IMG/VR virus record: IMGVR_UViG_3300025018_000448 | Span: 1-28,737 of that record | Strand: one strand, 5' to 3' | Length of the DNA stretch: 28,737 nucleotides | DNA from: a virus | Lineage: Duplodnaviria > Caudoviricetes | Shown: one piece after another, positions 6,418 through 10,807 of the stretch | Position numbering within the stretch: position 1 is the first letter of the stretch | Layout: each line of letters opens with the position of its first letter | Notes under the pieces: model-generated | What the model was told of the DNA's origin: nothing | Database searches by the model: none | Seen by the model: only the letters and a program-made list of their open reading frames with translations | Made by a program: the position numbers and the translations under genes

Positions 6418-7383
6418 ATGAACACTGCGAGAATGTTACAAGAAGAAAAGGAACTTGAGAGTAAACTGTTTGGGACCCCCGAGTCAGCTGAGACCAAGGC
6501 TGATGAGGCTCCCGTTACCAACCCCGAAGAGCAGAGTGCACCTGTTGATACTACAGCGGTCACTGTAGATACTGATAAGCCACTTGAGCATGAGGGTACG
6601 GAAGAGAGAGCTGAGGACTGGAAGTTACGCTACACTAACCTACGTAATAGTAGGGACGTTAAGCTATACAATGCTCAGAAAGCATTAGCTAATTCTGAGA
6701 ACACAGTTAGTATGCTTCAACAGAAGATCTCCGAGCTCATGAGTAGTACCACAAGAGTAGAAGAGGACATCTTTAAGGATGCCTTCACTGAGGAAGAGAG
6801 AGAGGCCTTAGGGCCTACAGCTATTGCAGCAATGCAGAAGACAGCTAAGCTAGCAGCAGATGCAAAGACCTTTAATATCCAGAAGGAACTAAAAGAAGTT
6901 CGGGATAGGGCCCACGCAGATGTCAAAGCTAATGCAGCTAATGCAGCTCAAAGAGCTTATGAAACTTTCCTTGGACGACTAGGGTCTATAGTACCTGATT
7001 ATGCTTCTATAGATACTGACCCTCGGTTTAAGCAATTCATGAATACTCAGGATATTGACGGTGCTGCTCGTATCCAGAACTTCACTATAGCAGAATCTCA
7101 TGGTGATGTAGCTACAGTAGCTAGACACATGTTAGACTTTAAATATTCTCTTAATCCTAAGGCTCAGGCTAAGGCTTCCCTTGATTCTAAGATTGGTCCA
7201 ACAGGTGACGCTACGAAAGTAGTTGTAAACAATAAGGAAACTAATGGTGATCTTACAATGCGTGAGGTCAACGAACACTATAGAAAATTCGCTAGAGGAG
7301 GCTATAAGGGTAGACAATCAGAGTACTTAGCAATGGAGGCCCGGATTGATGCCGCCGCATCTAGCGGTAAAATAAGAGGTTAA
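6418..7383 (+). CDS. putative capsid scaffolding protein
   Basis: Acidic disordered N-terminus, coiled coil, C-terminal 'IDAAASSGKIRG'; lies between portal and capsid. Confidence 0.75.
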   Translation: MNTARMLQEEKELESKLFGTPESAETKADEAPVTNPEEQSAPVDTTAVTVDTDKPLEHEGTEERAEDWKLRYTNLRNSRDVKLYNAQKALANSENTVSMLQQKISELMSSTTRVEEDIFKDAFTEEEREALGPTAIAAMQKTAKLAADAKTFNIQKELKEVRDRAHADVKANAANAAQRAYETFLGRLGSIVPDYASIDTDPRFKQFMNTQDIDGAARIQNFTIAESHGDVATVARHMLDFKYSLNPKAQAKASLDSKIGPTGDATKVVVNNKETNGDLTMREVNEHYRKFARGGYKGRQSEYLAMEARIDAAASSGKIRG

Positions 7384-7387
7384 TAAA

Positions 7388-10300
7388 ATGGCTTTACGTC
7401 CAGAAACAGCGCTTTACCACAATGCAGTAGACAACACCTACTTGGATCCGGTTAATTATATCCCGGAGTTGTACTCTAAGAAGGTTTTAAGGAAGAATTA
7501 GAAGTTCCTTTTTAAATCCCTACTGAAGAACGGGGTAAGACCCGAAGGAAGGTAATTCACTCTCATGAGGCGAATATGTTCAATACAAATGATCTAGGCT
7601 ATAAGCTTAGATGTGGAAGTATCAAGAAGCACTCAGAGCAACTTAATAAATATGTTGCTGGCTTTATAGATTCAGATGGGTGTATATCCTTGAAGTATAA
7701 GGAGATGACTACTGGTAGGTATGGGGTGTATGTACAGTTTGCACTCTGCCAATCTGAGAGCAATGATGAGGGGCACGAGCTTCTACTAGCTTTACAAAAG
7801 CATTATAATGTAGGACAAGTATACATAGAGAGAGAGTTCTCTAAATCTGTAGCAGCTAGGTGGGTGGTGTCAGGTAAGGAAGCTGAGAAGTTTCTAAGTG
7901 TAATACACAAGCACCTGCTAGTTAAGTACACACATCTAGGTAATATCTTATGGATAACCAGGGAGTTACGGGGCTATACTATCAGAGATGCTACTGATCT
8001 TAAAGATTACATGAAGTGCTCTAGGGCTTCATCTAGGTGGAAGAGAGAACCTAAGCATATATCAAAAGCCTGGTTAGCTGGTTTCATAGATGGAGATGGG
8101 CACTATAGAGTTCGTATAGGTAGACAACGTAGATACGGGGATGGTTCAGTGGCTACAGTCAACGAGCTTAAACTCTTTCTCGGTACCCAAGAGTCTGATG
8201 TATTTATTTTAAGGCAACTCTGTAAGGACTATAGAGGATCCTTAAGTAAGCGAACTGATGGCTTATGGATGTGGCAGTTAGCCCTGGGAAAGCAGAGTAG
8301 AACTAAGGCTATAGACCTACTAACGTCCCTAAGGAAGTATACTTGTATTACTAAGAAGTACAATGCTATTCTAAGAGCTTTAGCATTCCATGAACAATAC
8401 CACCTGCAGAGACTAAGTGTTGGGGAAGTCGATAAGATTATGCGATAGTCCGATAAGCTTCTATGAGTCTGCTATATTTCAAGATATTTGTAACACTGAC
8501 TTAACCTAATAGGTCACTTGAGGAGAGATCCTCTCGATTAAACTATGTGAATTGCTGGAACCCTGAGATGGGAATCAGCAGCGAAGCTTAGGTGGCGACA
8601 CCTTTGAACGTTCAACGACTAACCCTCGATACTCTTTTCAGAGTGTGTAATAGGGACACGAGCGCATAGCCCCAGAGATGGGTGATGATATAGTCTGATC
8701 TTATGGGAATACAACCATAAGTGCTAGTGTATTAAAAGGCTAGCAATAACGTAATGATGAGGGTGAGATTAAAGGTGCTGGTGCTAAGGTACATATTCGT
8801 AAGACTCCAGAGATCACTGTTAACCCGTACACAATCGGACAGACTCTGACTTATGAGGTACCTGAGAAAGATTCCACTGAGCTTGTAATTGACCAAGCTT
8901 TCTATACTGCCTTCCAGGTTGAAGATGTAGAGAAAGCTCAGGCTGATATCGAGCTTGTTAATATGTTTGCTAAGGATGCTGGAGAGCGAGTAAAGATTGC
9001 TGTCTCCAGAGAGGTACTTGCCTATATGTCCCTGCAGCCAGCTGCAGCTAACCAAGGTAACGTAGCCGGTGCTATCAGTGGTGCTATTAAGCTTGGTGCT
9101 ATTGCCGGTGTTGGTGCCTCTGTTCTTATTGATAGTACTAATGCAGTCAATAAGATCGTAGAACTTAATCAGGCTCTGGATGAACAGAACATCCCAAGTG
9201 AAGGGCGTTGGATTGCACTTCCTGCCTGGTACTGTGCCCTTCTTAAGGTTGGTGACTTGAGAAGATCCGACATTACCGGAGATAGTACTGGTGTGATTCG
9301 TAACGGACTCATTGGTCAAGTTGATCGTACTATGATCTACATGACTAATGGTCTTCATACTGCCACTGACGGTGATGCTGCTACTAGCACCTACGTCCTT
9401 TGTGGTACAAAAGAAGCTTCTAGCTTCGCTGCCCAGATCACTAAGACTGATACGCTGAAGATTCAGAATGCCTTCGGTGAGTCGGATGACTACGAGACTC
9501 TTCTCGCAGCCTAGTGCTCACTTTAAACTACTTTAAATAACGGGGTAAAACCCGAGGCAATGTATATAATTCCTCTTAGGAGCGTAATTAATGATATTCG
9601 ATACTAACACCTTAGGGTACAAGTTAGTTACAGGACAACTAAAGAAACACTCAGAACAACTTAATAAGTATGTAGCCGGTCTTCTGGATACAGATGGCTG
9701 GATAGGTTTTGAGTTCACACAAGGTAAAGCTTACGTTCGTATGGGTCTCCGACAAGCTGCAACAGTTGATGGAGACTTTCAGATGCTAAGAGCTGTACAG
9801 AAGCACTACCAACTAGGTACGATTTCCTACGGTTTCCAAGCAAATGATGTATCCTTCTGTTCCTGGAGACTTAGCACTAAACATGCTAACATGCTCTTCG
9901 GTTTAGTAGGGAAACATATGCGGATTAAACAGTCACACTTTAAGAACATACTAGAGTTTGATACTACGCAGGGAGACTTAAAAGAGTTCTCCAGGCTAAG
10001 TAGAGAAAACACTGGTTGGCTGAAGAGACCTAAGCACTTATCTTACGCGTATGTAGCTGGACTTCTTGATGGTGATGGCTGCTACAGAATCCGTAAGAAG
10101 GAAGGTAAGATTACTACAATGTGTGTTAAGGCAGCTATCAACGAAGAGTTCATACTCTTAAAGCTGCAAGAAGACTTTGGTGGTTCCATCAACGATCATT
10201 CAGAAGGTATGAAGTGCTGGCGTAGAGGCTTAGGTAAAGGGCATAAAGCCTTCTCTATTCCATTCCTTAAGAGCATGAGGAAGTATTCATGCATAGAAGG

Positions 10301-10504
10301 GAAGTACCTAAAGATCAATGAGATGTTAAGATATCTACAAGCCGCAGAGACTAAACAAGTAGAGATCACCCCAGTGGTGATCTAAGTGATAGTCCAACCG
10401 TACTAGCTACGGTTGACTGGCGTTCGCTCTTTGTCTATGGGCGTGCTGTCCCACAGCCTACTGCACTTGCTGCTCTTATCTGCAAGCCTGGTACTGCTGT
10501 GTAA
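7388..10504 (+). CDS. major capsid protein, spliced: join(7388..7494,8458..8501,8757..9482,10416..10504), 321 aa
   Basis: Exons of 107+44+726+89 = 966 nt join in frame: MALRPETALYHNAVDNTYLDPVNYIPELYSKKVLRN|FYESAIFQDICNTDY|EGEIKGAGAKVHIRKTPEIT...KIQNAFGEY|WRSLFVYGRAVPQPTALAALICKPGTAV*. The IPE.YS..FY..NTDYEGEI..G..V.I and FG...R.L.VYG patterns are those I recall from P22-coat-like (HK97-fold) capsids. ORF-track 8963..9514 is part of exon 3. Confidence 0.92.
7495..8457 (+). mobile_element. group I intron 1 (963 nt) in the capsid gene; reduced core, carries a LAGLIDADG gene
   Basis: IGS TAGAAGTTCCTT (7499-7510) is the exact reverse complement of the ligated junction AAGGAA|CTTCTA. P3 7517-7522/8421-8426; P4 CGGG 7531-7534/CCCG 7541-7544; P6 AGG/CCT; J6/7-P7 GCAGAGACTA; P7' TAGTC 8446-8450; terminal G 8457. 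Confidence 0.88.
7576..8448 (+). CDS. intron-encoded two-motif LAGLIDADG homing endonuclease / possible maturase
   Basis: Motifs YVAGFIDSDG and WLAGFIDGDG; lies in L6 of intron 1 with its 3' end overlapping P6'-P7-P3'-P8-P7'. Confidence 0.92.
   Translation: MFNTNDLGYKLRCGSIKKHSEQLNKYVAGFIDSDGCISLKYKEMTTGRYGVYVQFALCQSESNDEGHELLLALQKHYNVGQVYIEREFSKSVAARWVVSGKEAEKFLSVIHKHLLVKYTHLGNILWITRELRGYTIRDATDLKDYMKCSRASSRWKREPKHISKAWLAGFIDGDGHYRVRIGRQRRYGDGSVATVNELKLFLGTQESDVFILRQLCKDYRGSLSKRTDGLWMWQLALGKQSRTKAIDLLTSLRKYTCITKKYNAILRALAFHEQYHLQRLSVGEVDKIMR
8502..8756 (+). ncRNA. group I intron 2 (255 nt), canonical, ORF-less, subgroup IA-like
   Basis: 5' exon ends in U (TGACT) pairing with GGTCA; P2 with GAGA tetraloop; P3 CTATGTG/CGCATAG; P AATTGCTGGAA, Q AATCAGCAG, R GTTCAACGACTA, S GATATAGTCTG; extra helices between P7 and P3'; two P9 hairpins; ends in G 8756; removal restores D-Y-E-G-E-I-K. 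Confidence 0.95.
9483..10415 (+). mobile_element. group I intron 3 (933 nt) in the capsid gene; reduced core, carries a LAGLIDADG gene
   Basis: Exon GTGAGT pairs with GCTCAC (9516-9521; U.G at the splice site); P10 CTAGT/ACTGG; P3 CTACTT/AAGTAG; P4 CGGG/CCCG; P6 GGC/GCC; GCAGAGACTA...TAGTC; P8 AGATCACC/GGTGATCT; P9 AACCGTA/TACGGTT; terminal G 10415. Confidence 0.92.
9591..10385 (+). CDS. intron-encoded two-motif LAGLIDADG homing endonuclease / possible maturase
   Basis: Motifs YVAGLLDTDG and YVAGLLDGDG; clearly paralogous to 7576..8448 (shared LGYKL..G..KKHSEQLNKYVAG and PKH.S.A..AG..DGDG). Confidence 0.92.
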   Translation: MIFDTNTLGYKLVTGQLKKHSEQLNKYVAGLLDTDGWIGFEFTQGKAYVRMGLRQAATVDGDFQMLRAVQKHYQLGTISYGFQANDVSFCSWRLSTKHANMLFGLVGKHMRIKQSHFKNILEFDTTQGDLKEFSRLSRENTGWLKRPKHLSYAYVAGLLDGDGCYRIRKKEGKITTMCVKAAINEEFILLKLQEDFGGSINDHSEGMKCWRRGLGKGHKAFSIPFLKSMRKYSCIEGKYLKINEMLRYLQAAETKQVEITPVVI

Positions 10505-10643: not shown

Positions 10644-10729
10644 GGATGTCGTGAGCATTGGTAAGCTTCAGCGGGCTGTAACCCCGTAGCCTTCGGGCTG
10701 TCTAGGTTCGAATCCTAGGGCATCCACCA
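10644..10729 (+). tRNA. tRNA-Tyr(GTA)
   Basis: Acceptor GGATGTC/GGCATCC, anticodon arm GCGGG-CTGTAAC-CCCGT, long variable arm AGCC-TTCG-GGCT, T arm CTAGG-TTCGAAT-CCTAG, A73, encoded CCA. Confidence 0.88.
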
Positions 10730-10732
10730 TAA

Positions 10733-10807
10733 GGCACATAAGGATATGTGGAGATCTTCTAGCCTTGTAAGCTAGCTAACAGTGTTCGACTCACTGATGT
10801 GCCTCCA
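10733..10807 (+). tRNA. tRNA with TGT (Thr) anticodon and atypical, Cys-like acceptor stem
   Basis: Acceptor GGCACAT/ATGTGCC, D stem GGAT/ATCT, anticodon arm CTAGC-CTTGTAA-GCTAG, T arm CAGTG-TTCGACT-CACTG, U73, encoded CCA. Confidence 0.82.

Follow-up and report, generated by a model that had tools for sequence, protein, structure and literature searches.

A candidate ssrA-like degron in the L1 loop of a group I intron interrupting a phage capsid gene

The third of three group I introns in a phage capsid gene continues the upstream reading frame for ten codons that end in Leu-Ala-Ala and a stop, and translation of unspliced RNA would thereby fuse a tail resembling the tmRNA (ssrA) tag to a nearly complete capsid protein. 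Related introns at other sites repeatedly carry an in-frame Ala-Ala-stop ending, and the intron studied here is very likely an instance of the same selected ending. Its probable function, and the best explanation we can offer, is that of a ClpXP-type degron by which the truncated capsid would be cleared.

Materials and methods

Related intron cores were collected by pattern scans of viral, metagenome and genome contigs, and P3 and P1 were located by pairing. The survey set comprises 109 intron alleles at 53 sites, almost all of them in capsid genes. Left out were 39 of 109 distinct 3'-core matches (5' end outside the DNA, two non-introns, or P1 or frame unclear), among them L100, L122, L124 (twice), L126, L131, L134, L166, L169 and L186. 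L274 (the window's own sequence), L374, and L037 and L046 intron 2 (immediate stops, other core type) were also left out. A 17-nt core pattern gave 11 matches, none of which were introns; most pattern matches in metagenomes and genomes were judged to be chance, and the intron 3 endonuclease used as a query returned one weak locus.

Results

The window, i.e. the whole stretch of DNA analyzed here (IMG/VR record IMGVR_UViG_3300025018_000448), is a linear viral record, 28,737 nt long and about half complete, and contains terminase, portal, capsid and adaptor genes and two tRNAs, with tRNA-Tyr and tRNA-Thr (10644-10807) located immediately 3' of the capsid gene. Upstream of the capsid gene lies another gene of 321 aa (6418-7383). 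The capsid gene is composed of four exons and three group I introns and has a spliced product of 321 aa (Table 1). This product aligns over its full length with intact homologs. P0001, the closest of those listed, is 88% identical over exon 3; capsids of cultured phages are at most 38% identical. A structure model of P0001 matches HK97-fold capsids (best E 5.4e-19), and its exon 4 region forms strands 291-304 and 310-317 with pLDDT of 84-90; according to this model, retention of intron 3 would cost the capsid two beta-strands. The intron 3 junction (FGE/YWR) was set by intron-less homologs, and exact removal of the intron restores the host frame. The ends of intron 2 are given by a DNA contig in which 8757 directly follows 8501, and this intron is polymorphic in the population, as the intron-less contig in run X1 has a depth of 13.3 and the intron-bearing contig 6.7. 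The best-matching DNA datasets (X1 and X2) are labelled aquifer metagenomes, and X1 may have been the sample of origin. No contig joining across intron 3 or intron 1 was present in four DNA runs, no RNA dataset carrying the window sequence was among the matches listed, and no cultured phage DNA resembling the intron 3 junction was found.

Table 1. Features of the capsid gene and its introns in the window
Feature	Position	Strand	Basis or remark
Capsid exon 1	7388..7494	+	Intron-less homolog P0001 aligns end to end
Group I intron 1	7495..8457	+	Compact subfamily of intron 3; read-through KN-stop
LAGLIDADG endonuclease ORF, intron 1	7576..8448	+	PF00961, E 3.6e-17
Capsid exon 2	8458..8501	+	Spliced frame; intron-less DNA joint
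Group I intron 2, without ORF	8502..8756	+	RF00028, 60.5 bits; read-through LT-stop
Capsid exon 3	8757..9482	+	PHROG 267 major head protein, E 6.2e-19
P1 5' strand	9476-9482	+	End of exon 3
Candidate ssrA-like degron SDDYETLLAA-stop	9482..9514	+	In-frame read-through, 33-nt L1 loop
Group I intron 3 (predicted)	9483..10415	+	Pairings read from sequence; missed by Rfam RF00028
L1 hairpin CGAGA/TCTCG	9493..9506	+	Covers Leu codons
Internal guide	9509..9522	+	P10 strand 9509-9515, P1 3' strand 9516-9522
Intron 3 core	P3 9528-9533/10357-10362; P7 10349-10353/10390-10394	+	Read from sequence
LAGLIDADG endonuclease ORF, intron 3	9591..10385	+	PF00961, E 2.5e-7; enters 3' core
Intron 3 3' part	P8 10363-10383; P9 10396-10414; terminal G10415	+	Read from sequence
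Capsid exon 4	10416..10504	+	Last 29 residues; two HK97-fold beta-strands

Intron 3 is compact, lacks P2 and is interrupted by an 800-nt ORF. Its P1 (GGTGAGT/GCTCACT) places a U.G pair at the 5' splice site (T9482.G9516), and its P10 strand, GCCTAGT, pairs with ACTGGC of exon 4. The whole 61-nt stretch that holds the L1 hairpin folds no better than shuffles (z -0.91). The intron did not match Rfam RF00028, which in the window matches only intron 2; its type of core is common to 95 related introns. Judged by these pairings, intron 3 is a group I intron with predicted self-splicing. Upstream of its endonuclease (9556-9593), there is a TATAAT-like motif, present also in L036, and an AGGAG site folding into a weak hairpin, an arrangement like that of the T4 td endonuclease, for which delayed expression has been described. 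At the 5' splice junction of intron 1 (7484-7514; 8457/8458), an A-U pair takes the place of the usual U.G, the guide pairs unbroken across the end of exon 1 and the start of exon 2, and P9 is nearly absent. The same junction geometry is seen in L224, L238 and L315, and L365 has a normal U.G one base later.

Read on from exon 3, the unspliced frame is TCG GAT GAC TAC GAG ACT CTT CTC GCA GCC TAG (9482-9514), i.e. SDDYETLLAA with the stop at 9512-9514. A preliminary description of this DNA had proposed the tail, an enlarged L1 loop, a stop within the P10 guide strand and the sizes of the retained-intron products, and each of these was borne out: an exact re-reading of the frame returned the same peptide, L1 measures 33 nt, whereas the loop is 8, 10 and 15 nt long in the three introns at the same site for which DNA is available, and the stop lies inside the P10 heptamer (9509-9515). 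By recomputation, retention of intron 1 or intron 2 gives 37 aa (ending KN) or 52 aa (ending LT), both stopping after two codons, and retention of intron 3 gives 302 aa, of which 292 are capsid residues (out of 321) and 10 are tail. Among loop shuffles with a stopped peptide of at least 3 residues, 281 of 43,954 (0.6%) ended in AA and 33 of 43,954 (0.08%) in LAA. Since this single locus was picked from a genome-wide scan, its LAA alone would be unconvincing, and it is the comparative data that lift it above chance.

In the survey, host frames were set by hand after the translations had been viewed, which leaves room for bias. Tails of at least two intron codons end in Ala-Ala-stop in 17 of 57 alleles in frame versus 0 of 159 in the other frames, and in a terminal Ala in 29 of 57 versus 2 of 159; as allele counts are non-independent (11 of the 17 AA alleles derive from two sites), counts by site and by lineage give the fair picture, and by site the figures for AA are 6/28 in frame and 0/51 in other frames. 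For comparison, long ORFs in the same loci, some tailed exons included, end in AA in 12 and in A in 85 of 557 cases. Of the first in-frame stops, 17 of 56 are preceded by GCN-GCN, as against 1 of 945 for the remaining stop triplets of these intron stretches; this lone case is a displaced copy, found in L389, an allele with a new L1 tag. The third base varies in both Ala codons (penultimate Ala: GCT 7, GCA 5, GCC 5; last Ala: GCA 8, GCG 7, GCT 1, GCC 1), as do the stops that follow (TAG 10, TAA 7). The expectation that the AA-stop end is retained among homologous introns, with synonymous changes, is thus upheld. When the upstream exons were examined in the chosen frame, 13 of the 22 tested matched a PHROG family, 10 of them capsids and two AA sites included; three AA sites without a PHROG match share a protein with the LGVS site.

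The location of the tag differs among introns, being either L1 or the P5 hairpin, and one site has both: L1 tags in L140 and L389, P5 tags in L139, L391, L392 and L396. Of its two L1-tag alleles, one has lost the P5 copy and the other retains it out of frame. In a core tree that is built on 79 columns and weakly resolved, AA tails appear in at least three intron lineages, and they are also found in a second capsid family, PHROG 1357. The tree places window intron 3 among 27 rows, none of the others ending in AA, and the L103/L144 pair and the PHROG 1357 groups are separate from it.

Several further observations were made among the related introns. PHROG 267 capsid genes are hot spots, with up to four compact introns per gene at over a dozen sites and exons down to about 15 nt (L046, L315, L342, L224, L287, L290), and Rfam detects only the RF00028-type introns in them. 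Relatives are also present in a phage queC-like gene and two archaeal genome bins (L110; L379; L386), with short tails without Ala. L393 (1385-1442, equal to L129) and L399 carry a 58-nt insertion that has P1, P10 and a terminal G without a catalytic core, and its in-frame tail ends ALAA or SLAA. A complete intron located 26 nt downstream has its own tail without AA, and its core may possibly splice the coreless insertion.

We then considered the position of the tag within the host gene. In the first 62 codons, 0 of 53 alleles end in A and 45 stop within two codons; beyond codon 62, 17 of 56 alleles end in AA and 29 in A. By site, none of the 28 early sites has such an end, compared with 6/25 later sites for AA and 8/25 for A (p 0.008 and 0.001). 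These counts followed correction of hand-set positions at five loci and one site. The proposal that AA ends occur especially late in a gene therefore finds support in the 6/25 versus 0/28 sites; yet the trend weakens when the cut is set at 100 codons (AA p 0.06), and among tails of at least 3 codons the site-level difference, computed before the position corrections, is not significant (AA 6/15 late versus 0/7 early, p 0.12). Late introns without the tag are common, as an AA allele is missing from 19 of the 25 later sites. These include L130, with a tail ending ICLN, which interrupts another capsid family at an equivalent relative place (profile position 288 of 329), as well as the ADI site, L137, L138/L143 and L158. 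The candidate truncated proteins P0139, P0143, P0149, P0153, P0136 and P0154, whose introns are putative, also end without AA. Taken together, the frame-specific AA excess, the synonymous Ala codons, the two loops, the three or more lineages and the late position make it well supported that the Ala-Ala ending is selected as a peptide across related introns.

The main alternative is that the AA codons are a by-product of RNA structure, with P10 favoring GCC before the stop, the L1 hairpin supplying the rest and the stop merely shielding the core from ribosomes. The last Ala codon and the stop of the window tail indeed double as the P10 strand that pairs with exon 4, and therefore one of the two alanines came cheaply; the hairpin spans the Leu codons, the same P10 overlap recurs in L140, and P5-type tags sit in GC-rich hairpin arms. 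However, the penultimate Ala lies outside P10, as does the whole AA-stop in L103, L144, L129, L399 and 10 P5-type alleles, and the near absence of GCN-GCN before other stop triplets, save for the displaced L389 copy, also speaks against this alternative. Same-site introns with short loops moreover form P10 without AA codons. The suggestion that hairpin and guide pairing explain the codons holds in part, as the last Ala codon and the stop are shared with P10 and two of six same-site alleles stop at once, untagged; we regard a pure RNA by-product as unlikely.

We compared the tails with 13 tags obtained by ARAGORN on tmRNA loci from 14 genomes. Ten of the tags end in AA and three in LV, VA and FA. 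The window tail has a free C-terminal hydrophobic-Ala-Ala end, and LAA has been reported to bind ClpX directly (10.1101/2023.11.08.566101, accessible text); ssrA tags are 8-35 aa long and are read by ClpXP, ClpAP and Lon (PMC8012679, accessible text). The likeness to an ssrA tag that had been proposed stands in the LAA end and the length of about ten residues. It is mainly the last three residues that match: the best agreement among the 13 tags is 4 of the last 8 residues (LAA and one more) or 14/24 nt. Compared with an SspB-binding front of the AANDENY type, the front of the tail (SDDY) is acidic with a Tyr and matches none of the tags beyond this. Capture of the L1 loop from a tmRNA is unsupported at this level of identity, and no tmRNA gene (tRNA-like domain and resume codon) was found in the window. 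Other tails come closer; that of L103, ENYALAA, equals the last 7 residues of the Kosakonia tmRNA tag. FA-ending tails (L097, L132, L133, L156) are reminiscent of the tag found in a Patescibacteria genome, a resemblance that we take only as a lead.

A peptide could also be selected for reasons other than proteolysis, by tuning termination or ribosome dwell near the guide or by restoring a native-like capsid end. Ribosomes do affect intron folding (PMC3073962, PMC3984707, accessible text), and native capsid ends here are TAV, TAA and AAA. Against a degron, the three closest listed intact capsids (P0001-P0003) end in AA, as do 6 of 142 overall, and an AA end is therefore tolerated on this capsid; either the folded capsid hides its native AA end, or AA is a weak signal in these hosts. 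On the other hand, ENYALAA, DVALAA and SYLLAA match real tags beyond two residues, tag-like tails occur in the PHROG 1357 capsids as well, and introns with immediate or near stops are the majority, 59 of 109 alleles stopping within two codons. A non-proteolytic role is, on balance, quite unlikely.

Conservation of the AA end at the peptide level is frame-specific among related introns, and at the intron 3 site it is read from protein sequences only. Among 120 listed homologs out of 630 in the same-site search, four break at the same codon: P0035 ends SRSDSYLLAA, P0019 ends SIADDYYYQVAV, i.e. in VAV, P0045 ends WAHA and P0100 ends at the junction. P0035 and P0019 come from other phages with 61-66% identical capsids, and in these proteins the tails start with Ser exactly at the junction; P0157, the cluster mate of P0019, is an intact capsid. 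Same-site introns were confirmed by DNA in L036/L349 (WAHA) and in L046/L345 and L225 (immediate stop), and a survey of 80 capsid loci taken from viral contigs showed one only in L036 and L046. A search targeting the P0035 end returned 9 proteins and no new tail, and a shorter query 52 proteins and no new same-site tail. P0024 and P0159-P0161, which are 91% relatives without intron 3, are called from the same internal Met, which suggests that they carry intron 1 or 2 without intron 3.

These alleles bear on whether the pattern is real elsewhere while the LAA of the window is chance or a functionless relic. A very large scan could reach the shuffle frequencies given above, and of the six alleles at this codon, two with short loops and immediate stops (L225, L345) persist without a tag and one ends WAHA. 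Against this, two more long tails at this codon terminate in LLAA and VAV after different upstream residues, and chance or relic status is very unlikely. All three long tails look like tags, and they may share one origin.

Discussion

We propose that intron 3 is a mobile group I intron in which L1 has expanded to form a short reading frame. A ribosome reaching the 5' splice site before splicing would read ten codons into L1 and stop, releasing the 302-aa capsid without its last two beta-strands and with a free Leu-Ala-Ala end. This end would mimic the tmRNA tag, and ClpXP or a similar host protease would clear the faulty subunit; splicing would remove the tag and restore the normal capsid end. 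The benefit would be the removal of assembly-poisoning subunits, and a dominant-negative rationale is plausible for such a truncated capsid. We infer that unspliced RNA is translated in vivo, that ClpXP/ClpAP recognize the tail and that removal of the subunits is beneficial.

In-frame stops just inside bacterial and phage group I introns, e.g. T4 td, are known to give a truncated protein from unspliced RNA (PMC3073962, PMC3984707, PMC8565351), and the accessible text of two of these reports explains the stop near the 5' end only as a barrier to ribosomes (PMC3073962, PMC3984707). None of the accessible text addresses what becomes of the truncated protein. Introns 1 and 2 and 59 of the 109 alleles share this arrangement, whereas in intron 3 the stop comes ten codons later, L1 is enlarged and the codons spell a candidate protease signal. 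In contrast to the tmRNA tag that it resembles, the intron 3 tail is encoded in cis in the mRNA and would be added by ordinary elongation without tmRNA or SmpB. In integration-dependent immunity of the BPs type in mycobacteriophages, as described in the accessible sources, a phage-encoded ssrA-like tag is removed by DNA recombination at integration, setting a lysis/lysogeny switch; here, RNA splicing would remove the tag, which is part of a mobile intron and likely serves quality control. The engineered SIBR ON-to-OFF switch likewise joins a group I intron with an SsrA tag, but as a proposed synthetic design of opposite logic in which splicing attaches the tag (PMC8565351, accessible text). 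In the accessible literature outside subscription journals and bioRxiv supplements, we found no intron-borne degron removed by splicing.

The chances are about even that the pattern is general, with ssrA-tag mimics having arisen repeatedly, in independent events, in L1 or P5 of phage group I introns. In this reading they would form a surveillance system encoded in cis, by which proteins translated from unspliced mRNA are destroyed; they would arise where a truncated product has sufficient length to poison assembly, and would be tuned to the host tag (AA, FA or AV). If true, such tail endings could point to hosts. The prevailing view is that splicing makes group I introns near-neutral. A selected degron would mean that translation products of unspliced RNA are a real cost, which the intron offsets by means of host proteolysis. 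It would be a bacterial counterpart of intron-retention surveillance, placed in a ribozyme loop that serves as both RNA and peptide; it would explain how introns persist late in structural genes, and it would offer a natural splice-to-stabilise switch.
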